This document shows positions 25,326 to 46,092 of a DNA stretch of 64,000 nt, one piece after another. The notes below the pieces were generated by a model. That model saw only the letters and a list, made by a program, of their open reading frames with translations, searched no databases and was not told where the DNA came from. Location: the NCBI GenBank assembly GCA_038882655.1, contig JAVZNT010000003.1:1-64000 (forward strand). The letters are read 5' to 3'. Each line of letters starts with the position of its first letter. The first letter of the stretch is position 1. This stretch comes from Candidatus Bathyarchaeia archaeon (GTDB taxonomy: Archaea; Thermoproteota; Bathyarchaeia; Bathyarchaeales; Bathycorpusculaceae). Position numbers and translations under genes: made by a program.

Positions 25326-26396
25326 TTAGCAGATTCTTGGAACAGGGTCACCGAGGGGTCTAGCTATTATCCTTTTGCCACCTACTACTGTTTGCATCGC
25401 CACTCCGTCAAATTCTTTTGTGGCTTCGCCTATAATCTCGGCGTCTCTGCCTTCTTCCGTGGTTTTCAAGAATTGTAAAACTTCTTCGGCTTTCTCTCTT
25501 AACACTCCCATGATTATTTTGCCTTCGTTTCCAACTTCAAGCGGGTCTAATCCTAGCATCTCGCATGCTGCCCTCACATTCTCTCTTATTGGGATTTTGT
25601 CTTCGTGGATTAGTATGCCCACTTTTGATTTTTCGCTGAACTCGTTTAGGGCGTCTGCCAATCCGCCGCGGGTTGGGTCTTTAATGGCGACTATGCCGCC
25701 AGCCTCGCCTAACAAACGCTGAATAAGGCGGTTTAAGGGTTTAACATCGGACTTTATTTCGCTTCCAAAGCTCAAACCTTCTTGGGCAGATAAAATCGCT
25801 AAGCCATGGTCGCCTATTGTGCCGGACAATATTATTTTGTCTCCGGGTTTTAGGTTTGAATCGAGAATCCAACGCGCTTCAAAATCGCCCCTAAAGCGTT
25901 TAACAACAGCCAAATTTTTTTCTAAGGCTTCTGTTCTTCTGCCAATTCCAGAAACGTTTACAACGCAGCCACCTAGGCTTCCCTTTTCCACGACCTTTGT
26001 GTCACCCGTAACAATGCTCACGTTTGCCTCTCGGCATGTCTGCTGCATGCTTACAAGAATCTTTTCAAAATCTGTTAGAGACAAGCCTTCTTCTAGGATA
26101 AAGCCGCACGCCAAAGCATGTGGTTCAGCTCCTAAAGCAGCAATATCATTGACAGTGCCGGAAACAGCCAAACGTCCAATGTCCCCACCTGGGAAAAAGA
26201 TTGGCTTAACAGCGTGGGAGTCGCTTTTCAAAACAATGTCGCCGATGGCTGCGGCGTCGTCTAAAGCCTCGAGGGGCACTTCAAAACTTGTGTTTTCAGC
26301 ACCGCCAAAGTATTTTAGAACATATTTTTTAACGAGGTCGTGCATAACTGTTCCGCCGGCGCCATGCAACATCGTGATGTACTCGCTGTTCTTCAT
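25326..26396 (-). CDS. hypE: Hydrogenase maturation protein HypE
   Basis: HGAGG, PIFFPGGDIGRLAVSGTVND, GDTKVV, DPTRGG, NEGK, C-terminal PRIC. Confidence 0.97.
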   Translation of the reverse strand: MKNSEYITMLHGAGGTVMHDLVKKYVLKYFGGAENTSFEVPLEALDDAAAIGDIVLKSDSHAVKPIFFPGGDIGRLAVSGTVNDIAALGAEPHALACGFILEEGLSLTDFEKILVSMQQTCREANVSIVTGDTKVVEKGSLGGCVVNVSGIGRRTEALEKNLAVVKRFRGDFEARWILDSNLKPGDKIILSGTIGDHGLAILSAQEGLSFGSEIKSDVKPLNRLIQRLLGEAGGIVAIKDPTRGGLADALNEFSEKSKVGILIHEDKIPIRENVRAACEMLGLDPLEVGNEGKIIMGVLREKAEEVLQFLKTTEEGRDAEIIGEATKEFDGVAMQTVVGGKRIIARPLGDPVPRIC

Positions 26397-26620
26397 CGAG
26401 GTTCACCATCTTTGTGTCAATAAGGTCTTAGGTTGGACATAAATGCATCGAGGGATTTGCGGAGCCTTGTTGGGCGCGGCGCTTACGGGCTCGATTCACT
26501 AAATTGCGGAAGAGAGTCGTGTTTTGTTGGTGTTAGGCGAACTTCAAAATGTAATGGTTTATGGAAAACCATATAAACCGCCATGTAGCTGTTCAATTGC
26601 ACAGTTGGAGAGTCTATCGA

Positions 26621-37772: not shown

Positions 37773-38051
37773 ATGCCCAGACCATCTCAACGTGCACGCA
37801 GCCGGAAACGTGTTTTCAGGACTCTGCCTGGAGGACGCACAAGCATGCATCTTAAACGCGAAGTTCCAAGAGGTGACAGTTGCGCCAGTTGCGGCAAACC
37901 TTTAGCCGGAATTCCCCATCTTCTCCCCCATGAGGCGACGAAGCTTAACAGGACGAAGAGGAGAATTTCAAGAATTTATGGTGGGCATCTCTGCCACAAC
38001 TGCTTGAAAGTAGCCCTTAAACATGCGGCACGAACACTTAGTGTTGTATGA
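37773..38051 (+). CDS. rpl34e: 50S ribosomal protein L34e
   Basis: MPRP..R..S, R.LPGG, CASCGKPL.G, R.YGG.LC.NC. Confidence 0.93.
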   Translation: MPRPSQRARSRKRVFRTLPGGRTSMHLKREVPRGDSCASCGKPLAGIPHLLPHEATKLNRTKRRISRIYGGHLCHNCLKVALKHAARTLSVV

Positions 38052-38061
38052 GGTTCTTGGC

Positions 38062-38652
38062 ATGGCGAAAGAACCATTGATTATCTGCGTTTGTGGGATG
38101 GCTGGAAGCGGAAAAAGCACTTTAGCAAAAAAACTGGCCGAAAAGTACGGACTTAAATATTATTCTGGCGGTGATGCCCTAAAAGCTTTGGCTTTAGAGA
38201 GAGGTCATAAGCCAGCGGGGCACGGTTGGTGGGAAAGCAAAGAAGGCTTATCATTCCTAGAGAAAAGGAAGAAAAACCCCCAATTTGACAAGGCTGTTGA
38301 CCAGAAACTCTTGGAAATTGCAAAACAGGGAAACGTAATTCTAGACAGTTGGACAATGCCGTGGCTTCTCGAAGGCGGGTTCAAAATATGGCTTGAAGCA
38401 TCGCCAAGAAAAAGGGCGGAAAGAGTAGCAAAAAGAGACAACATGACCGTGAAAGAGGCATTAAACGCCTTGAGAAAGAAGGAGGAGAAGACAAAATCAA
38501 TCTATGAGAAGCTTTACGGCTTCAAATTAGGCGAAGATTTCACCCCATTCCACATGATATTGGACACCGATAATTTATCAGCTGAAGAAGTTTTTCAAGC
38601 CCTAAGTTTAGTTTTAGACAAGCTAGTTTTTGGTAAACAGAACTTCGCGTAA
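38062..38652 (+). CDS. cmk: Cytidylate kinase (archaeal type)
   Basis: P-loop GMAGSGKST, SGG, RAERVAKRD, YEKLYG; canonical position after L34e. Confidence 0.92.
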   Translation: MAKEPLIICVCGMAGSGKSTLAKKLAEKYGLKYYSGGDALKALALERGHKPAGHGWWESKEGLSFLEKRKKNPQFDKAVDQKLLEIAKQGNVILDSWTMPWLLEGGFKIWLEASPRKRAERVAKRDNMTVKEALNALRKKEEKTKSIYEKLYGFKLGEDFTPFHMILDTDNLSAEEVFQALSLVLDKLVFGKQNFA

Positions 38653-38723
38653 ATTTTTTAAAGCATTAGAGAAACTTCTATAATATTCCTTTAAAATAAA
38701 ATCCACATCTGAATCTAAAACCA

Positions 38724-39110
38724 ATGCGGAGATTGGAGAACTTGAAAATGCTAATTTTCTGCTCCGCAATTGTTACAGCCTTAATCCTCACAATTCTTCA
38801 CGGGCTTCTTCCAATGACTTGGGAAACGGCTCAAACACTGCTTACATTTAACCTTCTATTTCTGCTCATTCTCATGCCATTAAAAGGGTCTATTATGAGA
38901 AAAATAGCAATACTTTTGTTAGGTAATATATTAAGCTTCATTTGGAGCACCCTTTTCTATCTGCTTGTTCACTTCGCTGTTGGGCAAATGGATGGAGTGT
39001 TTAACACCTTATATGTTGTTTTGAGTCCACTGTTGAATGTTTTGTGGGTTGTAACATTTTGGTCTACAAGTCTGACCTTTTTGGCTGAACCGGGAAAAGG
39101 AAAGCGGTGA
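38724..39110 (+). CDS. Uncharacterised 4-TM membrane protein
   Basis: Four hydrophobic segments; stop overlaps the GT2 start (GTGA). Confidence 0.7.
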   Translation: MRRLENLKMLIFCSAIVTALILTILHGLLPMTWETAQTLLTFNLLFLLILMPLKGSIMRKIAILLLGNILSFIWSTLFYLLVHFAVGQMDGVFNTLYVVLSPLLNVLWVVTFWSTSLTFLAEPGKGKR

Positions 39111-40429
39111 AAAACTTGATAACTGAAATTTTAGAGGTCTTGCTTTTTCTGTCGACGATCTTGATGGCGGCTTATCTTGTTCGCCATTACATCTTCACCA
39201 TAACGGTTGCCAAGAAATCAAAAATAAATGGGAGGAGCCTTGTTGCAGCCGAAACCGCGGTCTTATCTTACCAACCAAAAGTGTCAATTTTGATACCTGC
39301 TCACAACGAAGAACTTGTCATTGGGCGGCTTCTCCAAAGAATGACGGAGCTGACATATCCAAAGGACAAGTTGCAAGTAGTAGTGATAGATGATGCCTCG
39401 ACGGATAAAACTGGAATTATAGCAGAACAGTATTCGAGGCATCACCCCTACATATTTGTTGTGAGAAGACATAGAGAGGAAGGTGGGCGTGGAAAGGCTT
39501 CCGCCCTAAACGCCGGAATGAAGTGGGCTAATGGCGAGATAATTCTGTGTTTTGACGCTGACTATTACCCGCAAAGAGACATTATAGAAAAACTTGTGAA
39601 AGAGTTTAAAGACCCAAAAGTGGGAGCAGTTCAAGGAAGGGTTGTTGTGCTAAACGAACCGCAAAACATCGTCACAAGGCTTGTTGCCCTTGAAAGGATA
39701 GGCGGATACCGCGTTGATCAAGAAGCCCGCGACAGCCTCGGCTTGATAACGCAGTTCGGCGGGACTGTTGGAGGATTTAGGCGTACCCTTTTAGAATCTC
39801 TTGGCGGATGGGACGAAAATATTCTAGCGGAGGACACTGATTTGACTTTCCGCGTTTATCTCGCTGGTTATAAGGTTAAGTATGTTAGTGATGCAGAGTG
39901 CTATGAAGAGGCTGTTGAAAATTGGCGAGCCTATTGGAGGCAGCGATACAGATGGGCTAAAGGACATATGCAATGTGCCTTCAAGCATTTGCTAAAAGTT
40001 CTGAAAAGCAAAAAGCTTGGACTTAAAGAGAAAATTGATGGCTTATTCTTGCTCGGTGTCTATTTTCTCCCCATTATTGTCCTTTTCTCATGGATAATTG
40101 GGGTGTCGCTAATGTTTCTGAAATTTTCGCGGCATTTCTCTCCATTTTGGGCAACATCCTCCATTGCCCTCTACAGTTCCATCGGAAACTTCGCTCCATT
40201 TTATGAGATTGGAGTTGGCGCCTTTCTTGATGGCAGAAAGAGGGCACAGTGGCTTATCCCCCTACTTCTCTTCACCCTCTTTTACAATATCCCTATATGC
40301 ACTAAAGCTCTTCTCGACATTTTTATTTCAAAAATTACAAGGAAAAACAATAACCATTGGGTTAAAACCGAACATTCAGGCAATGGAAACTGTTATATTA
40401 TAAACTGCGCTAAAACCTTAGAAAGGTAG
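39107..40429 (+). CDS. Processive family-2 glycosyltransferase (cellulose/PNAG-synthase-like)
   Basis: IPAHNEE, DDASTD, GKASALN, FDAD, AEDTD, QRYRW (D,D,D,QxxRW); N- and C-terminal TM helices; W.KTEH end. Confidence 0.92.
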   Translation: MKNLITEILEVLLFLSTILMAAYLVRHYIFTITVAKKSKINGRSLVAAETAVLSYQPKVSILIPAHNEELVIGRLLQRMTELTYPKDKLQVVVIDDASTDKTGIIAEQYSRHHPYIFVVRRHREEGGRGKASALNAGMKWANGEIILCFDADYYPQRDIIEKLVKEFKDPKVGAVQGRVVVLNEPQNIVTRLVALERIGGYRVDQEARDSLGLITQFGGTVGGFRRTLLESLGGWDENILAEDTDLTFRVYLAGYKVKYVSDAECYEEAVENWRAYWRQRYRWAKGHMQCAFKHLLKVLKSKKLGLKEKIDGLFLLGVYFLPIIVLFSWIIGVSLMFLKFSRHFSPFWATSSIALYSSIGNFAPFYEIGVGAFLDGRKRAQWLIPLLLFTLFYNIPICTKALLDIFISKITRKNNNHWVKTEHSGNGNCYIINCAKTLER

Positions 40430-40432
40430 AGA

Positions 40433-40684
40433 ATGGTTCCAGCTTCAGCTTTAACGTCAGTTATAATGTTGTTTTTTGGAGTTATGGCCTTCATTATTAT
40501 TATGCTTTTACCAGCAATTATGGAGCTGAAAAAACCAAAGGATGCAGGTCCAAAAATATTGGAAAGCGGCGAGCAACATGGAATTAATCTGTTGGTTAAC
40601 ATGGAAAGCGACGTCAAATTTGATTGGACCACCATAAGGCGAGTTGCAGAGATAATTGCAATCCTTCCAAACTTGGAGCCCTAA
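40433..40684 (+). CDS. Small single-TM protein downstream of the GT2
   Basis: TM helix followed by LLPAIMELKKPKDAGP; starts 3 nt after the GT2 stop. Confidence 0.7.
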   Translation: MVPASALTSVIMLFFGVMAFIIIMLLPAIMELKKPKDAGPKILESGEQHGINLLVNMESDVKFDWTTIRRVAEIIAILPNLEP

Positions 40685-40759
40685 CCCCAAAATTCAGAAA
40701 GCCTCATAGACGAGACTGTTAAATTCAATAGTTAGGAAAAGGGAGGACGGGGCCACATA

Positions 40760-42163
40760 ATGTTCTATATAGAATGCACAGTGTGCGGTGCAAAGTTTGA
40801 AGCCTATCCACCACAATACAGCTGCAAGAAATGTAGCGGCCTCCTAGAATACAGATGTGATAATGAAACGCTTAAAACCGGAACATTTGTCGGGCCTTTC
40901 ACTTTTTGGCGTTACAGGAAGCTTCTGCCAAAGGTCAGAAATGTTGTCTCCATGGGGGAAGGAGGAACCCCACTTATCAAGGCGAGAAGACTTGCCAAAG
41001 GTATTGGGTTAAACAATTTATACTTTAAGGATGAGACGCGAAACCCAACGAATTCTTTTAGGGATAGATGCGCTGCCCTAATTGTTTCCAACGCTGTTGA
41101 TTTGAAGTATAAGTCGGTTGCTTGCGCTACAAATGGAAACCTTGGGGCCTCCTTAGCTGCATACTGTGCAAAGTCTGGATTAACATGCCATGTTGTGGTG
41201 CCGAGAAACGTGGATATGGGAAAACTTGCCCAAATGCTGATCTATGACGCCGTAATTGAAGAGTATGGGGAAATAGTGGATGATTCACTGAAAAGGGCAG
41301 ATGAGCTAGCCAAAGAAATGGGCTGGTATCAAGGGTCTGCAGAGTTTAATCCGCTATCAATAGAAGCCCTAAAAACCATTGCCTACGAAGTTTACGAGCA
41401 AATTGGCGTCCCAGACTGGTTGATTGCTTCTATGGGAAGTGGTGGGACGTTATATGCTATTTGGAAAGGGTTTAAGGAGCTTGAAATAAGAGGCGAAGTA
41501 AAATCCATCCCAAAGATGGTTGGCGTTCAAGCTGAAGGCTGTTCACCAATTGTAAACGCGTATATGCAAAATATTCATGAGCTAACTCTCAAAACTAAAC
41601 CTTCAACTCACGCTCTTGCCATCCTCGTTAAAAGGCCGTGGTATGGTAAATTAGCCATCAAAGCAATCAAAGAATCTATAGGAATGGCTATATCAGTTTC
41701 AGACGAAGAAATTTTCTCTGCGGAACAGGAAATTGCAAAACTTGAGGGTGTCTTCGCTGAACCAGCAAGCGCAGCAACATACGGGGCACTTAAGAAACTT
41801 GTAAACCAACATGTAATTGGCAAAAAGGACAAGATTGTATGCTTGATAACTGGAAGCGGACTTAAAGCAACAGACATCCTCCAAATTTTAACTAAGAGAA
41901 AGAAAACGGCTATTGTTGGATTAGAGCTTAGTACAAAAGAGAAAATATTGAGGATCCTATGTGAAAATGATGCTTACGGCTATGAATTATGGAAAAAACT
42001 CGGAAAAGTGATGACGAGGGCAGCAATTTACCAACATTTAAGCGAATTATCAAAAAACGGGTTGGTCTCAAGTTATGAGAAAGATGGGCGAAAATATTTC
42101 AAAATAACAAAACGTGGAATTAAAGCTATTCATGCATTCGAGGATCTAAAACTTTTGTTATAG
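40760..42163 (+). CDS. Threonine-synthase-fold protein lacking the PLP lysine, fused to a C-terminal PadR-like winged helix
   Basis: Zn-ribbon N-terminus, MGEGGTPL, NPTNSFRDR (canonical NPTGSFKDR), KTIAYE, GVQAEGC.P, EPASA, TGSGLK; then ILRIL...YGYELWK.L....RAAIYQHL.EL...GLV......RKYF.IT..G. Confidence 0.88.
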   Translation: MFYIECTVCGAKFEAYPPQYSCKKCSGLLEYRCDNETLKTGTFVGPFTFWRYRKLLPKVRNVVSMGEGGTPLIKARRLAKGIGLNNLYFKDETRNPTNSFRDRCAALIVSNAVDLKYKSVACATNGNLGASLAAYCAKSGLTCHVVVPRNVDMGKLAQMLIYDAVIEEYGEIVDDSLKRADELAKEMGWYQGSAEFNPLSIEALKTIAYEVYEQIGVPDWLIASMGSGGTLYAIWKGFKELEIRGEVKSIPKMVGVQAEGCSPIVNAYMQNIHELTLKTKPSTHALAILVKRPWYGKLAIKAIKESIGMAISVSDEEIFSAEQEIAKLEGVFAEPASAATYGALKKLVNQHVIGKKDKIVCLITGSGLKATDILQILTKRKKTAIVGLELSTKEKILRILCENDAYGYELWKKLGKVMTRAAIYQHLSELSKNGLVSSYEKDGRKYFKITKRGIKAIHAFEDLKLLL

Positions 42164-42197
42164 TTTCCTATTTCATAAAGGGCATAAATTTAAAATA

Positions 42198-42215
42198 GTA
42201 TAGCTACAGCTATAC
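42198..42215. promoter_or_regulatory. Inverted repeat GTATAGCT-AC-AGCTATAC (candidate operator) next to a TTTAAAA TATA-like box
   Basis: Perfect 8-bp arms with a 2-bp spacer, between TTTAAAA (42189-42195) and the ATG at 42235. Confidence 0.65.
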
Positions 42216-42234
42216 CATTACACGAGGCTTTAAA

Positions 42235-42984
42235 ATGTCATTAAAGTCTGCGAACTTAACAAGGCAGCTAAGCATCACGGCTGTTTTCACAGCTCTTGTT
42301 TGCATAGCAACAATAAGCTTCACTGTTTATGTGCCAAGCACAAAAGGCTATTTTAACATAGGGGAAACAATGGTTTACACTGCAGCCTTACTTTTCGGGC
42401 CTTTTGTAGGAGCTTTTGCTGGTGGTGTTGGTTCTATGCTCGCGGATGTTTTCTTAGGTTATTACTATTATGCACCAGCAACTTTAGTAATTAAAGCCTC
42501 GGAAGGTCTCCTTGTTGGTTTTATCAGTCGGAAAGGGCAAGTTTTTGCTAGGTCCTATGTCAAGCGTGAGTGGAGAATATTTACAATTGAAATAGGCATA
42601 CTCGTAGGGATGCTCATCAGTCTTATTGGTTTCCTTTACTATAGCGGGCTTGTCGAACTCTATTCAGGCATAGTTTCCATAGAAAACCCAGCATCAACAG
42701 TTTTCGTCCCTGTTGAGTTTTGGTTTGGAATAGGGATTCTTACAGTCATTCTAGTAACAGTTTTAGCCTTAACATCTGAACCAGATTTCAGTTTAACAAT
42801 GATTGCATGCATCTTTGGAGGGTTGCTAATGGTTTTCGGATACTTCCTCTACGAACAGCTTTTCCTTGGGGTGTTTGCTTTCGCAGAAGTTCCCATAAAC
42901 ATTGGACAAATGACAGTAGGCCTAATTATTGCAGCACCCATTGTGCGAATCGCGAAGCAAACCTTGCCACAACTTAAAAGCTAA
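42235..42984 (+). CDS. ECF transporter S-component (extended)
   Basis: TALV..AT, P.T.GYFNIGE, GAFAGGVGSMLAD, APATLVIK..EG, MV.GYF.YE, P.NIGQ. Confidence 0.9.
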   Translation: MSLKSANLTRQLSITAVFTALVCIATISFTVYVPSTKGYFNIGETMVYTAALLFGPFVGAFAGGVGSMLADVFLGYYYYAPATLVIKASEGLLVGFISRKGQVFARSYVKREWRIFTIEIGILVGMLISLIGFLYYSGLVELYSGIVSIENPASTVFVPVEFWFGIGILTVILVTVLALTSEPDFSLTMIACIFGGLLMVFGYFLYEQLFLGVFAFAEVPINIGQMTVGLIIAAPIVRIAKQTLPQLKS

Positions 42985-43015
42985 CCTATTAAAATATTTG
43001 CTTGAGGCATTGAAA

Positions 43016-44041
43016 TTGAAACTGCCATTTGGAAAAGTTCCCATTGAAATACTAAAAGAGGTTATCTTTAAAAATCTTGGATTCAAACGCAGAGAGGTTA
43101 TCCTTGGACCATCAGCTGGCTACGATGGCGCGGTTATAGATTTGGGCGAGGAATCTCTGGTGGCTTCAATGGACCCCATTACCGGTGCTATTGAGCGTAT
43201 CGGCTGGCTTGCAGTAAATATCAATGCAAATGACATCGCCACTTTTGGTGTAGAGCCAGCTTTTTTCCTTTCATGCATATTGCTTCCAGAAGACACAGAC
43301 CGAAAAACAATTGAAGTTATATGCCTTCAAATGAATGATGCTGCAAACGATTTAAAAATGGCTATTATTGGGGGGCACTGTGAAGTAACGCCCGGGCTCG
43401 CTAATCCTGTCGTTATAGGATGCGCTTTGGGAATAACAGAAAAGGGGCGTTATGTCACAGCCGGTGGAGCTAAGCCTGGGAACAAACTTATTTTAACAAA
43501 AAGTGCTGGCATAGAAGGAACAGCCATACTGGCAACTGAACGCTATGATTTGCTCCTAAGGTTAGGCGCCGACGGTAAGCTGTTAAAGTCTGCGCAGAAG
43601 TTTTTTGACAAAATAAGCGTCGTCAAAGATGGCTTAACAGCATTCAAAACCGGCGGAGTTAAGGCAATGCATGACCCCACAGAAGGCGGCGTTCTAGGGG
43701 GCATCCATGAGATGGCAGATGCCTCAAACCTCGGCGTTAAAGTCTTTGAAGAGGAAATTCCAGTGGCAAAAGAAACGGCGGAAATTTGCAGGCTTTTAGG
43801 GATAGACCCATTGCAGCTGATAAGTTCTGGAGCTATGCTTATTGCAGCAAAACAGGAATACATGGAACTTATCATCGAGAAATTAAGGAAGGAGAAGATT
43901 GAAGCGTCCGTAATTGGCGAGTTTTTGAGCGATTCGAAAAAACGGGTAATGGTTCGCCAAGATAAACGTGAAACAAACCTTCTGCGTCCGGGATGCGACC
44001 ACTTATGGTTGGCATTAACAAGTCAAAAAGGAGTAAAGTAA
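43016..44041 (+). CDS. AIR-synthase (PurM)-like family protein (HypE/ThiL-related)
   Basis: GKVP, DPITGA, INANDIAT.G, IIGGH.EVT, AGIEGTAILA, MHDPTEGG; lacks the HypE C-terminal PRIC; start codon uncertain. Confidence 0.85.
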   Translation: MKLPFGKVPIEILKEVIFKNLGFKRREVILGPSAGYDGAVIDLGEESLVASMDPITGAIERIGWLAVNINANDIATFGVEPAFFLSCILLPEDTDRKTIEVICLQMNDAANDLKMAIIGGHCEVTPGLANPVVIGCALGITEKGRYVTAGGAKPGNKLILTKSAGIEGTAILATERYDLLLRLGADGKLLKSAQKFFDKISVVKDGLTAFKTGGVKAMHDPTEGGVLGGIHEMADASNLGVKVFEEEIPVAKETAEICRLLGIDPLQLISSGAMLIAAKQEYMELIIEKLRKEKIEASVIGEFLSDSKKRVMVRQDKRETNLLRPGCDHLWLALTSQKGVK

Positions 44042-44080
44042 ATATGCCTATACCTTTTGAAATATGAATTTCGCTGAAGG

Positions 44081-45061
44081 ATGAAAATGTTTCAAAACCT
44101 AAATATGGAAAGAGTTTTTATAACCGGGGGCGCCGGTTTCATTGGAAGTCACCTAGTTGACAGACTATGCGAAATGGGCGAAGACGTTATTGTATTTGAC
44201 AACTTAAGCTCTGGCACCGTTGAAAATGTCAAAAAATGGTTGAACATGCCTAACTTTAAATTTATACGTGGTGATTTACTATCTCTGAAAGAGATTATTA
44301 AATCCATAGAAGGATGCGACACCGTTTTTCATCTCGCTGCCAACCCAGAAGTTCGTGTTGGTTCGGAAAACCCTAAAATCCATTATGAACAAAACGTGCT
44401 TGCAACGTTTAATCTGCTTGAAGTAATCCGCAAAGTTGGGCGTGTCAAAACCCTAATTTTCACTTCTTCTTCAACGGTTTATGGAGATGCAATAGCAATA
44501 CCAACTCCAGAGGATTATGCCCCACTAAAGCCCATCTCAGCTTACGGCGCTTCTAAGCTAGCTGCTGAAGCCCTCATATCAGCATACGCCAACACATACG
44601 GCTTTCAAGCCATAATATATAGACTGGCAAACATTGTAGGCCAGAGGTCGCAGCATGGAGTCATACATGATTTCATAAAAAAACTCAAAGAAAATCCGAA
44701 AAAGCTTGAGATACTTGGCGATGGCACTCAAACCAAATCCTATTTACATGTTGAAGACTGTATAGACGCCATTCTGACAGGCTTATATAAGAGCAATGAA
44801 AGGGTAGGCATATTCAATGTGGGATCTGAGGACCAAGTAGTCGTAGAGGAGATAGCAGACATTGTTTGCGCAAAGATGGGGTTAAAAAGTGTGCAATATG
44901 TTTTTACAGGCGGTGTCGATGGGGGGAGAGGCTGGAAAGGCGACGTAAGGGTCATGCTTTTAAACATTGAAAAACTTAAAAAATTAGGGTGGAAGCCAAA
45001 ACTGAAAAGCCGTCAAGCAGTTGAGAGAGCGGTTTCAGAAATATTGCATGCTACACGTTAG
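44081..45061 (+). CDS. NAD-dependent nucleotide-sugar epimerase (UDP-glucose 4-epimerase-like)
   Basis: TGGAGFIGSHL, HLAANP, SSSTVYG, YGASK, GDGTQ.KSY. Confidence 0.93.
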   Translation: MKMFQNLNMERVFITGGAGFIGSHLVDRLCEMGEDVIVFDNLSSGTVENVKKWLNMPNFKFIRGDLLSLKEIIKSIEGCDTVFHLAANPEVRVGSENPKIHYEQNVLATFNLLEVIRKVGRVKTLIFTSSSTVYGDAIAIPTPEDYAPLKPISAYGASKLAAEALISAYANTYGFQAIIYRLANIVGQRSQHGVIHDFIKKLKENPKKLEILGDGTQTKSYLHVEDCIDAILTGLYKSNERVGIFNVGSEDQVVVEEIADIVCAKMGLKSVQYVFTGGVDGGRGWKGDVRVMLLNIEKLKKLGWKPKLKSRQAVERAVSEILHATR

Positions 45062-46092
45062 TGTCTTTTTAAAAAGAATCTCACGCTTCGCCACTTGTCC
45101 TTAACTATTTCAATGTTGCCAGCAACGCTTCCATGAATCGAGTAAAAAATGTAACAAAGATATGCGCATCTTTCACACTCACTATATTTTTTTCTAAGGA
45201 CTTCAAATCTTTCGCTTTCCCAAAGACTGGGCAATTCGAAAATTGAAGCAACCGGTTCGTGAAGATGGCAGCCGGCAACTTCACCTCGATGATTTATTAC
45301 AAAAAAATTCCGCAGCGCACCACATTTCCAGATTCTCTCATTACTCAGATAAAGGTGCTTAACAGCCTCCAAAACTTTTGTTGTAATCAAAATATTGTCA
45401 TTCTCTCGCTTCATTTCAAGAAGTGAGTCGCAAACCTTAACCATGGCGTCTCTATCCCTTATTAAGAAAGCATCTTCCGCTTTTCCTATCTTAAAAAGTG
45501 AGTTTGAATGGTCGGGCGCGTCATAGGAATATAGGGAATACCAGACCGGTATTCCTTTGTCTAAGAAATATTTAGTGAAATCAACAATCTCGTAAAGATT
45601 TGCTTGCGAAATAGTAGGCGTCACGCTTACATTAATTCCTTCCATGTGAAGTCTTTCAACAGCTTCCATAGCTTTTTTCCACGCCCCCTTAACCCCCCTT
45701 ATGCGGTCGTTTTTATCCGGGTTTAGGCTGTCTATTGAAATCGCAACAAAATTTGTGTGTCTTAACGCGCCAATGTTTTTAACCGCCAAGCTACCATTAT
45801 CATAAACTGTTACAAGGAAGTAACGTGACGCATACTCAATTATTTCGTCGATGTCGGCCCTCAAGAGTGGGTTACCACCAGATATCAAAACCTCCACAAC
45901 GCCAAGTTTTCGAAGGATATCCAACCCGCGTTTGACCTTTTCAGTTGATAATTCCTTGTTGTCCTGCTCCCGCCAGACATTACACCCTCTACAACGGTAA
46001 TTACATTTTCTCGTAACCATCCATTGCACATGATAAGGCCTATTAGGCGCCAAAACCCGCGAAACAATGCTCAAGGCTTTTCTAATGGACAT
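45058..46092 (-). CDS. Radical SAM protein with SPASM/twitch domain
   Basis: CNYRCRGC, SGGNPL, ISIDS, C-terminal C.A...G.V..C...C..C...C. Confidence 0.88.
   Translation of the reverse strand: MSIRKALSIVSRVLAPNRPYHVQWMVTRKCNYRCRGCNVWREQDNKELSTEKVKRGLDILRKLGVVEVLISGGNPLLRADIDEIIEYASRYFLVTVYDNGSLAVKNIGALRHTNFVAISIDSLNPDKNDRIRGVKGAWKKAMEAVERLHMEGINVSVTPTISQANLYEIVDFTKYFLDKGIPVWYSLYSYDAPDHSNSLFKIGKAEDAFLIRDRDAMVKVCDSLLEMKRENDNILITTKVLEAVKHLYLSNERIWKCGALRNFFVINHRGEVAGCHLHEPVASIFELPSLWESERFEVLRKKYSECERCAYLCYIFYSIHGSVAGNIEIVKDKWRSVRFFLKRH

Follow-up and report, generated by a model that had tools for sequence, protein, structure and literature searches.

The window analysed here is the whole stretch of 64,000 nucleotides at positions 1 to 64,000 of contig JAVZNT010000003.1 from a Candidatus Bathyarchaeia archaeon (assembly GCA_038882655.1). 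A single open reading frame (ORF) of 467 amino acids (aa) was found on the forward strand at the studied position, which encoded a threonine synthase (ThrC)-like domain with arginine in place of the lysine that binds pyridoxal 5'-phosphate (PLP), followed by a C-terminal winged helix-turn-helix (wHTH) domain of the PadR type. Behind its stop codon came an A/T-rich box, a 22-bp palindrome, a gene for a vitamin transporter of the S-component type (PF07155) and a gene of the PurM superfamily (Table 1). The 467-aa protein very probably regulates this adjacent transporter operon, and the fuller picture, a dimeric pseudoenzyme repressing vitamin B6 uptake with a B6 vitamer as its ligand, is put forward as reasonably probable.

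The sequence-only reading of this stretch had described the motif NPTNSFRDR with AGG as the codon of residue 101, an otherwise intact ThrC fold and an extra PadR-like wHTH at the C-terminus, and these three descriptions were borne out. When the protein was aligned to the solved threonine synthases 2zsj and 2d1f, Arg101 fell under the K of NPTGSFKDR. The PadR profile (PF03551) was matched at its positions 1-74 of 75 with 46.6 bits (cut-off 27, E-value 3.3e-12), and the thrC profile TIGR00260 gave 209.9 bits, over its cut-off of 167.1. Another profile, NF004170 (PRK05638), which carries the name 'threonine synthase', gave 396.8 bits, under its cut-off of 421; its positions 2-441 of 442 were aligned to residues 4-460, wHTH included, so it spans the enzyme domain together with the C-terminal wHTH and matches the architecture of this ORF. 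Its name looks wrong for the members without the lysine. In 14 control genomes no protein scored over the NF004170 cut-off.

An AlphaFold2 model built on 69 family members (predicted local distance difference test score, pLDDT, 93.4; predicted template modelling score, pTM, 0.82) contained a complete ThrC-like fold at residues 1-378, a disordered linker, and a winged helix with a terminal helix. The fold matched threonine synthases in Foldseek with target TM-scores of 0.84-0.89. Three helices (392-402, 407-413 and 420-432 by DSSP) and a beta hairpin (436-441 and 444-449) made up the wHTH, followed by the terminal helix (451-466). Helix 420-432 is the probable recognition helix in this model, and Y424, H426, L427 and L430 of the wHTH were almost invariant across the family. 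At the N-terminus, the cysteines C6, C9, C22 and C25 were conserved at 85-92% in the canonical as well as the fused groups, and the ribbon presumably binds zinc.

Table 1. Features of the regulator-transporter locus, in positions of the window
Feature	Position	Strand	Evidence
Regulator gene, ThrC-like pseudoenzyme with PadR-type wHTH, 467 aa	40760..42163	+	ORF, Pfam, NF004170, AlphaFold2 model
N-terminal four-cysteine ribbon (C6, C9, C22, C25)	40775..40834	+	Conservation
Fold-type II PLP (PALP) domain, residues 63-365	40946..41854	+	Pfam PF00291 (E-value 7.2e-77), Foldseek, conservation
Arg101 codon AGG at the position of the PLP Schiff-base lysine	41060..41062	+	Sequence, alignment to 2zsj/2d1f, family counts
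Flexible linker, residues 379-389	41894..41926	+	pLDDT < 50 in the AlphaFold2 model
wHTH, residues 392-466	41933..42157	+	Pfam PadR 396-458, DSSP of the model
A/T-rich box ATAAATTTAAAA, candidate archaeal TATA element of the transporter promoter	42184..42195	+	Read from the sequence, putative function
22-bp palindromic operator candidate TAGTATAGCTACAGCTATACCA	42196..42217	.	Inverted repeat, recurrence in related loci
S-component-type vitamin transporter gene, PF07155 (PdxU/HmpT/RibU family), 249 aa	42235..42984	+	Pfam, 101.8 bits (cut-off 26.7)
AIR-synthase-related (PurM-superfamily, ThiL/HypE-like) gene	42929..44041	+	Pfam AIRS and AIRS_C

Of the 120 best homologues (65-100% identity), 116 had R at the motif position, two had S and one had M; one protein had no motif, and K was found in none. 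The PadR domain was present in 119 of the 120 according to precomputed Pfam matches, the exception being a partial protein. Since no lysine occurred among the 119 motif-bearing close homologues, Arg101 is not a sequencing error, and the strain mutation or read error (AAG/AGG) which the sequence-only reading had allowed for is ruled out. A more distant set was made up of the best 150 representatives clustered at 50% identity and was scored with a tail-specific hidden Markov model (HMM). Here 69 of the 73 wHTH-tailed representatives lacked the lysine, two kept it and two were without the N-terminal part; the untailed representatives had lysine in 74 cases out of 77 and arginine in three, two of the latter being fragments (247 and 227 aa) and the third a 467-aa protein whose match ended at residue 332. 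Loss of the lysine thus co-occurs with the fusion, which was a proposed check of the earlier reading. The residues found in its place in the 69 tailed proteins were L (19), R (14), I (14), V (5), T (5), M (4) and F (3), with S, Y, A, N and H once each. The change from lysine to arginine therefore holds for this gene and its close homologues, and across the family arginine is only one among many replacements.

In a FastTree tree of 226 enzyme-domain rows, from which the lysine column and the tail had been taken out, one branch (support 93) set off all 104 tailed proteins. They were joined by two rows scored as untailed, one of which stops at a contig end, while the other has a match stopping at residue 332. 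The same split was obtained in an IQ-TREE 'quick' tree of 80 rows (Shimodaira-Hasegawa-like approximate likelihood ratio test, SH-aLRT, 88), in which the fusion state changed once and the lysine state three times. The fusion of the wHTH to the ThrC-like domain arose once. One half of the family had a hydrophobic or small residue at the lysine site and comprised Thorarchaeota, Nitrososphaerota, Methanomethylicota and some Bathyarchaeia. The other half, mostly with arginine, comprised Bathyarchaeia including this gene, Jordarchaeia, Thermococci and Desulfurococcales.

Two subclades nested in the arginine half (supports 92-100) retained the lysine, one in Loki/Hermodarchaeota and the other in a small group of Bathyarchaeia which is sister to the clade of this gene. 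That fused homologues might keep the lysine had been raised in the earlier reading, and it is true of this minority only, 8 of the 104 fused rows. The members in question (L015, L016 and L022-L025; P0121 and P0126) had the same transporter neighbour and palindromes. A tree uniting all tailed proteins without lysine was rejected by the approximately unbiased test (log-likelihood difference 109.3, p 0.0004), for which the group was defined after the tree had been seen. Parsimony favours two reversions from arginine to lysine, each by one base change; several independent losses of the lysine are a possible alternative.

The fused family was distributed over Bathyarchaeia, Asgard archaea, Nitrososphaerota, Thermococci and others, with Thermococcus chitonophagus (WP_068578498.1) and Thermosphaera aggregans as cultured holders, and its proteins go under the database names 'threonine synthase' or 'pyridoxal-phosphate dependent enzyme'. 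In addition, two stand-alone proteins with an N-terminal wHTH matched the tail HMM at about 1e-14, one in locus L030 (11147-11998, +, 283 aa) and one in L054 (5338-5853, -, 171 aa), and these may be related to the source from which the fused domain came.

A separate canonical thrC was sought in the host genome (1.02 Mb in 27 contigs, 84% complete), as the sequence-only reading had advised, and it was present on contig C2, where it encoded an untailed protein of 369 aa with NPTGSFKDR (NF005035, 443.8 bits vs a cut-off of 301). The lysine that forms the Schiff base with PLP is required for catalysis by these enzymes. Since this defining lysine is missing, ORF 40760-42163 is not a threonine synthase by membership, and its product would be a regulator without threonine synthase catalysis. 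The pocket was then compared between 73 canonical relatives and 66 tailed proteins without the lysine. There were 53 enzyme-domain positions with at least 85% conservation in the canonical set; in the Lys-less set, 46 of them still reached 75% and 41 still reached 85%. The Schiff-base lysine went from 100% to 0%, and the other positions not kept were 112, 124, 219, 251, 283 and 285. Because 46 of the 53 conserved positions were kept, the pocket reads as a ligand-binding module, not as a decaying enzyme.

Eighty related loci were returned and their flanking ORFs were clustered; counted with the window, 35 loci carried the tailed gene. A PF07155 S-component gene was the immediate neighbour of the regulator in 27 of these 35 fused loci, and five of the other eight end at the regulator gene. 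In the loci without the transporter the neighbours were housekeeping genes (GatDE, FttA, MCM, proteasome), except one AIRS-like and one HAD gene in L052. The partner was co-directional and downstream in Bathyarchaeia, convergent in Loki/Hermodarchaeota, and divergent and upstream in Thorarchaeota, one Bathyarchaeon and one Nitrososphaerota genome; the pairing also occurred in Desulfurococcales. With three orientations across the lineages, the pairing has outlived rearrangement. Other recurrent neighbours in the Asgard and Thorarchaeota loci (helicase, GTPase, rubrerythrin, ZIP and others) look incidental.

The S-component gene is the predicted target of regulation. Its product had only one match in PDB, 4hzu_S, the HmpT/PdxU2 of Lactobacillus brevis (6.8e-11). 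PdxU and PdxU2/HmpT, both members of PF07155, are counted in PMC9997740 as two of only three characterised prokaryotic B6 transporters, and the substrate of HmpT is given as pyridoxamine in PMC4860826. The PurM-superfamily gene, whose true start may lie about 30 codons further in, is probably in one operon with the transporter gene, and such a gene stood behind the transporter in 10 Bathyarchaeia loci. It scored under every NCBIfam cut-off, with 127 bits for HypE and 92 bits for ThiL (TIGR01379). No match to EcfT (PF02361), the T-component of energy-coupling factor (ECF) transporters, was found in the host genome at its completeness of 84%.

The palindrome of the window lies between the stop codon of the regulator and the start of the transporter gene, directly behind the A/T-rich box and 17 bp short of the ATG. 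Related Bathyarchaeia loci had TAGTATAGTT-NN-AACTATACTA in the same position, and the Loki/Hermodarchaeota loci had two tandem TATAAGTT-NN-AACTTATA palindromes. The palindrome of the window carried an identical T-to-C change in both half-sites, as would be expected if a symmetric dimer recognises it. In 18 of the 27 loci, the 150 bp before the partner gene contained the core AGYT-NN-ARCT (500 shuffles: mean 0.30, maximum 3). A 9-2-9 palindrome that matched at 8 or more of 9 positions was present in 17 of the 27 (200 shuffles: mean 1.37, maximum 5).

The site was also nearly unique in the genome. With up to 3 mismatches allowed, the palindrome of the window was the only site in the 1.02-Mb genome, the other sites being weak with 4-5 mismatches. 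In five related Bathyarchaeia genomes a single site was present in four, and the fifth (G002) had one extra; the reversed pattern, used as a control, gave none. In five Asgard genomes, sites with at most 1 mismatch stood at the regulator locus, plus one at G010:C85, and matches with two mismatches were fewer than with the reversed-pattern control. The additional one, at G010:C85:6318-6335, is a single-mismatch palindrome of the Loki type away from the regulator locus. With the palindrome near-unique per genome and placed at the regulator locus, the regulon would be essentially local, and the placement of the palindrome after the promoter box and before the start codon suggests repression. No Rfam match at E-values up to 0.1, riboswitch or other RNA, was found in 38000-45500. 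A sigma-70 promoter scan, which has no meaning for an archaeon, stayed at background.

In a two-copy complex prediction the regulator reached 0.81 vs 0.00 for the best control. When this type of prediction was calibrated, 20 of 30 proteins with structures solved as pairs passed the mark, as did 1 of 23 solved as single chains. Agreement between the runs was at least 51% of contacts, with a partner pLDDT of at least 85. The predicted interface was formed by the ThrC-like domain and included residues 96-98 and 366-369 beside the pocket. Since ThrC dimers have been solved, the score may reflect likeness to these known dimers. The modelled dimer is in keeping with a palindromic site, and through it ligand binding might alter the spacing of the two DNA-binding helices.

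Full-length tailed matches were found in at least 78 genomes of a sample of 301 Thermoproteota genomes, and among the matches listed 12 of these genomes had PdxS (PF01680). In six of the 12, pdxS divergently adjoined the regulator at a distance of 150-190 bp; five of the six belong to one genus and one to a different family of the class of the window. The presence of pdxS, pdxT and a PALP-PadR regulator was confirmed by Pfam in the two loci scanned out of five retrieved. In four loci, all of one genus, the spacer between regulator and pdxS contained CCTATATATAGG; in the fifth it had CCATATATGG, a related but shorter palindrome. CCTATATATAGG also stood between the regulator and the transporter gene in Thorarchaeota. 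As an exact 12-mer it occurred once per genome in five of five genomes (1.3-4.0 Mb; control 0); in three of these it was located between regulator and pdxS, and in the other two, both Thorarchaeota, between regulator and transporter gene. One operator type is therefore common to B6 synthesis genes of one lineage and the PF07155 gene of another. In the host genome of the window, 84% complete, no PdxS, no PdxK/ThiD above cut-off and no ThiC were found. A B6 vitamer is the best-supported candidate for the ligand of the regulator. The sequence-only reading had listed a B6 vitamer, phosphohomoserine and threonine as candidates, of which the first is favoured by the transporter partner, the palindrome and the link to pdxS-pdxT.

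The mechanism proposed here is that of a one-component transcription regulator, whose sensor would be a ThrC fold made catalytically dead through the exchange of the Schiff-base lysine for arginine, with the rest of the pocket kept. A homodimer formed via the enzyme-like domain would set its two C-terminal PadR-type winged helices on the 22-bp palindrome, and binding there would block transcription of the PdxU/HmpT-family S-component gene and of the PurM-superfamily gene behind it. The ligand would be a B6 vitamer, with PLP as first candidate, bound reversibly without a covalent link, so that ample cofactor would turn the importer off, if the ligand acts in this direction. The idea that an enzyme domain was repurposed into a ligand-sensing regulator, which came from the sequence-only reading, is supported by all the computational tests made here; DNA binding, repression, the identity of the ligand and loss of catalysis are inferred.

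Several observations count against this proposal. The 8 fused rows which keep the lysine mean that its loss is not obligatory for the function of the family. The region before the regulator gene itself had neither an inverted repeat nor an operator core, and the palindrome of the window scored as a hairpin in a terminator scan, on the minus strand only. The motif CC-TATATA-GG overlaps what could be a plain TATA box. The pocket residues of HmpT as described in PMC4860826 include Glu41, His84, Gln87, Tyr120, Asn140 and Gln143, and only one of the three alignable ones was kept in the partner (Glu41 as E44), with His84 replaced by Lys87 and Gln87 by Glu90; Tyr120, Asn140 and Gln143 fell in poorly aligned stretches. 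The extra operator of G002 (L083:1317-3313, contig C63; 3 mismatches) precedes an S-component paralogue of 305 aa with an N-terminal extension, which is followed by a bona fide thiL (TIGR01379, 252.9 bits); this may reflect cross-talk with thiamine salvage or the duplication of a promoter. The comparison of PdxS content, which in itself speaks for B6, has its limits: among the matches listed, PdxS was found in 12 of the 78 regulator-bearing genomes (8 of 63 when a completeness of 90% or more is required) and in 144 of the 301 genomes of the completeness-filtered phylum sample. Because these genomes are related to one another and the two samples differ slightly, a lower content of PdxS in regulator-bearing genomes is a tendency only.

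One alternative is a different ligand for the same regulator. PLP-enzyme mutants without the lysine form dead-end external aldimines, and PLP could thus be a non-covalent cofactor with which the protein senses an amino acid or phospho-amino acid, such as O-phosphohomoserine, threonine or a relative, as an external aldimine of this kind. Such a reading of an amino acid via non-covalent PLP is made possible by the conservation of nearly the whole ThrC active site (46 of 53 positions), and a canonical thrC (418-425 aa, lysine present) stood divergently upstream of the regulator in four Bathyarchaeia loci, L010-L013. However, this adjacency was confined to one small clade, where it may be a trace of the duplication that produced the family, and no operator core was found upstream of the regulator in these loci, bar one weak match in L012. 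The conserved partner and operator concern a vitamin-type S-component, not thrC, and the adjacency of pdxS-pdxT together with the common palindrome indicates B6, so we regard an amino acid ligand as unlikely.

A thiamine-related ligand would require that the protein controls the salvage of thiamine or of its pyrimidine moiety (HMP) and senses HMP phosphate (HMP-P), thiamine monophosphate (TMP) or thiamine pyrophosphate (TPP); the pyrimidine phosphate resembles PLP. Three of the points that burden the B6 proposal lend themselves to this view and keep it a live rival: the G002 operator before an S-component paralogue and a true thiL, the likeness of the co-operonic gene to ThiL/HypE with its 92 bits on TIGR01379, and the original prediction of HmpT as an HMP carrier, which is mentioned in PMC4860826. 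Neither ThiC nor ThiD was found in the host genome, which agrees with it too. It is nevertheless quite unlikely, since there is a separate ThiT gene (TIGR02357, 143.4 bits vs 108.45) in an operon of its own without the operator as well as a separate true ThiL, and no thiamine biosynthesis gene stood beside the regulator in the 35 loci, whereas the regulator was paired with pdxS-pdxT in six genomes and the 12-mer palindrome precedes the transporter in two Thorarchaeota.

It is very unlikely that the protein is still an enzyme, i.e. a bifunctional threonine synthase and regulator. The TIGR00260 score over cut-off, the intact fold and pocket and the database name would suit such a protein, and archaeal enzyme-regulators exist, as described for RbkR (PMC5397151), but the Schiff-base lysine was missing in 96 of the 104 fused rows, with L, I, V, M or F in a whole clade, and a canonical ThrC is present in the same genome. 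The chance of an artefact or a decaying gene is negligible, for although AAG and AGG differ in one base, arginine was found in 116 of 120 close homologues from independent assemblies, the frame is intact and the conservation extends to the wHTH.

The B6-responsive repressor proposed above has counterparts among known regulators. In Archaea, ThiR joins an inactive thiamine-phosphate-synthase-like (ThiN) domain to a DNA-binding domain and regulates thiamine genes and transporters; the principle of a dead enzyme as vitamin sensor would be the same, but both fold and vitamin differ. Classical PadR proteins are small, with an N-terminal wHTH, and dimerise via C-terminal helices. The wHTH described here is a member of the PadR family by its Pfam score over the cut-off and its topology with a following helix, but it is a C-terminal appendage (392-466 of 467 aa), and the predicted dimer interface lies in the enzyme-like domain. 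Canonical ThrC proteins (TIGR00260, PRK08197; 2zsj, 2d1f, 6nmx, 1v7c) share the fold, the cysteine ribbon of the closest canonical relatives, the 46 of 53 positions and the predicted dimer surface, whereas the regulator has no Schiff-base lysine, has an extra wHTH and occurs together with a true ThrC in its genome. MocR proteins have an N-terminal wHTH of the GntR type and a fold-type I aminotransferase-like domain, retain the PLP lysine and are bacterial; the regulator, in contrast, is archaeal and has a C-terminal wHTH of the PadR type with a fold-type II ThrC-like domain in which the lysine is lost. No GntR or aminotransferase domain was found in it by Pfam; it is no member of the MocR group, and the resemblance to MocR is one of analogy, not homology.

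The resemblance consists in a one-component design with a PLP-enzyme fold as sensor fused to a winged helix, as in the MocR members PdxR, GabR and TauR, and in what looks like the same regulon logic as that of PdxR, namely an uptake gene or pdxS-pdxT; control of pdxST and of B6 uptake genes by PdxR is reported in PMC5320631 and PMC9997740. RbkR is likewise an archaeal vitamin regulator composed of a pathway enzyme and a wHTH, and it binds 16-20-bp palindromes before vitamin synthesis genes and S-component (ribU) genes according to PMC5397151. It differs in being an active kinase of another fold which acts on riboflavin genes, while the enzyme domain here appears inactive. The closest functional analogues would thus be MocR/PdxR in bacteria and, among Archaea, RbkR and ThiR.

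Beyond the local operon, a second AIRS-like gene was observed in the host genome on contig C7 (L085:2625-4887), in an operon of ThiT, a KaiC-like ATPase and the AIRS-like gene. Since neither EcfT nor PdxK/ThiD, PdxS or ThiC was found in this genome, both AIRS-like genes beside S-components could encode vitamin-trapping kinases for solitary S-components. A wider conjecture, tentative and rather doubtful, is that the family is the missing B6 regulator of Archaea, which through the loss of its covalent lysine became able to read free PLP reversibly and in B6 auxotrophs, this Bathyarchaeon among them, governs an 'import and trap' module of a solitary S-component that needs no ECF energising module and a PurM-superfamily B6 salvage kinase of a new type, with the Lys subclades as reversions. 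The gap of an alternative B6 kinase is on record in PMC9997740, and if the conjecture is true, the PurM-superfamily enzyme would fill it.

Elsewhere in the window, two small ORFs at 38724-39110 (128 aa) and 40433-40684 (83 aa) flanked a GT2 glycosyltransferase gene upstream of the regulator. The former was predicted as membrane-like, and both had no Pfam match and recurred in only three related loci. A clear HypE gene was also identified at 25332-26402 on the minus strand (TIGR02124, 364.8 bits), which implies a [NiFe]-hydrogenase maturation system in this small genome.

No published description of a ThrC-PadR fusion family was found in a search that covered little of the subscription journals and only the main text of the B6 papers, and no B6-responsive regulator of Archaea was found in the literature searched. 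If the proposal is true, the family supplies an archaeal B6 regulator, present in Asgard, TACK and some euryarchaeal lineages. It would also be a natural case in which a PLP enzyme became a sensor by removal of its lysine with the pocket kept, which would be useful for pseudoenzyme biology and the design of ligand sensors. Because of the database names, metabolic reconstructions of uncultured archaea may count a false threonine synthase and overlook B6 auxotrophy. Finally, an archaeal B6 transporter and salvage enzyme are treated as open problems in PMC9997740, and the regulon flags a candidate for the former and possibly a new enzyme for the latter.

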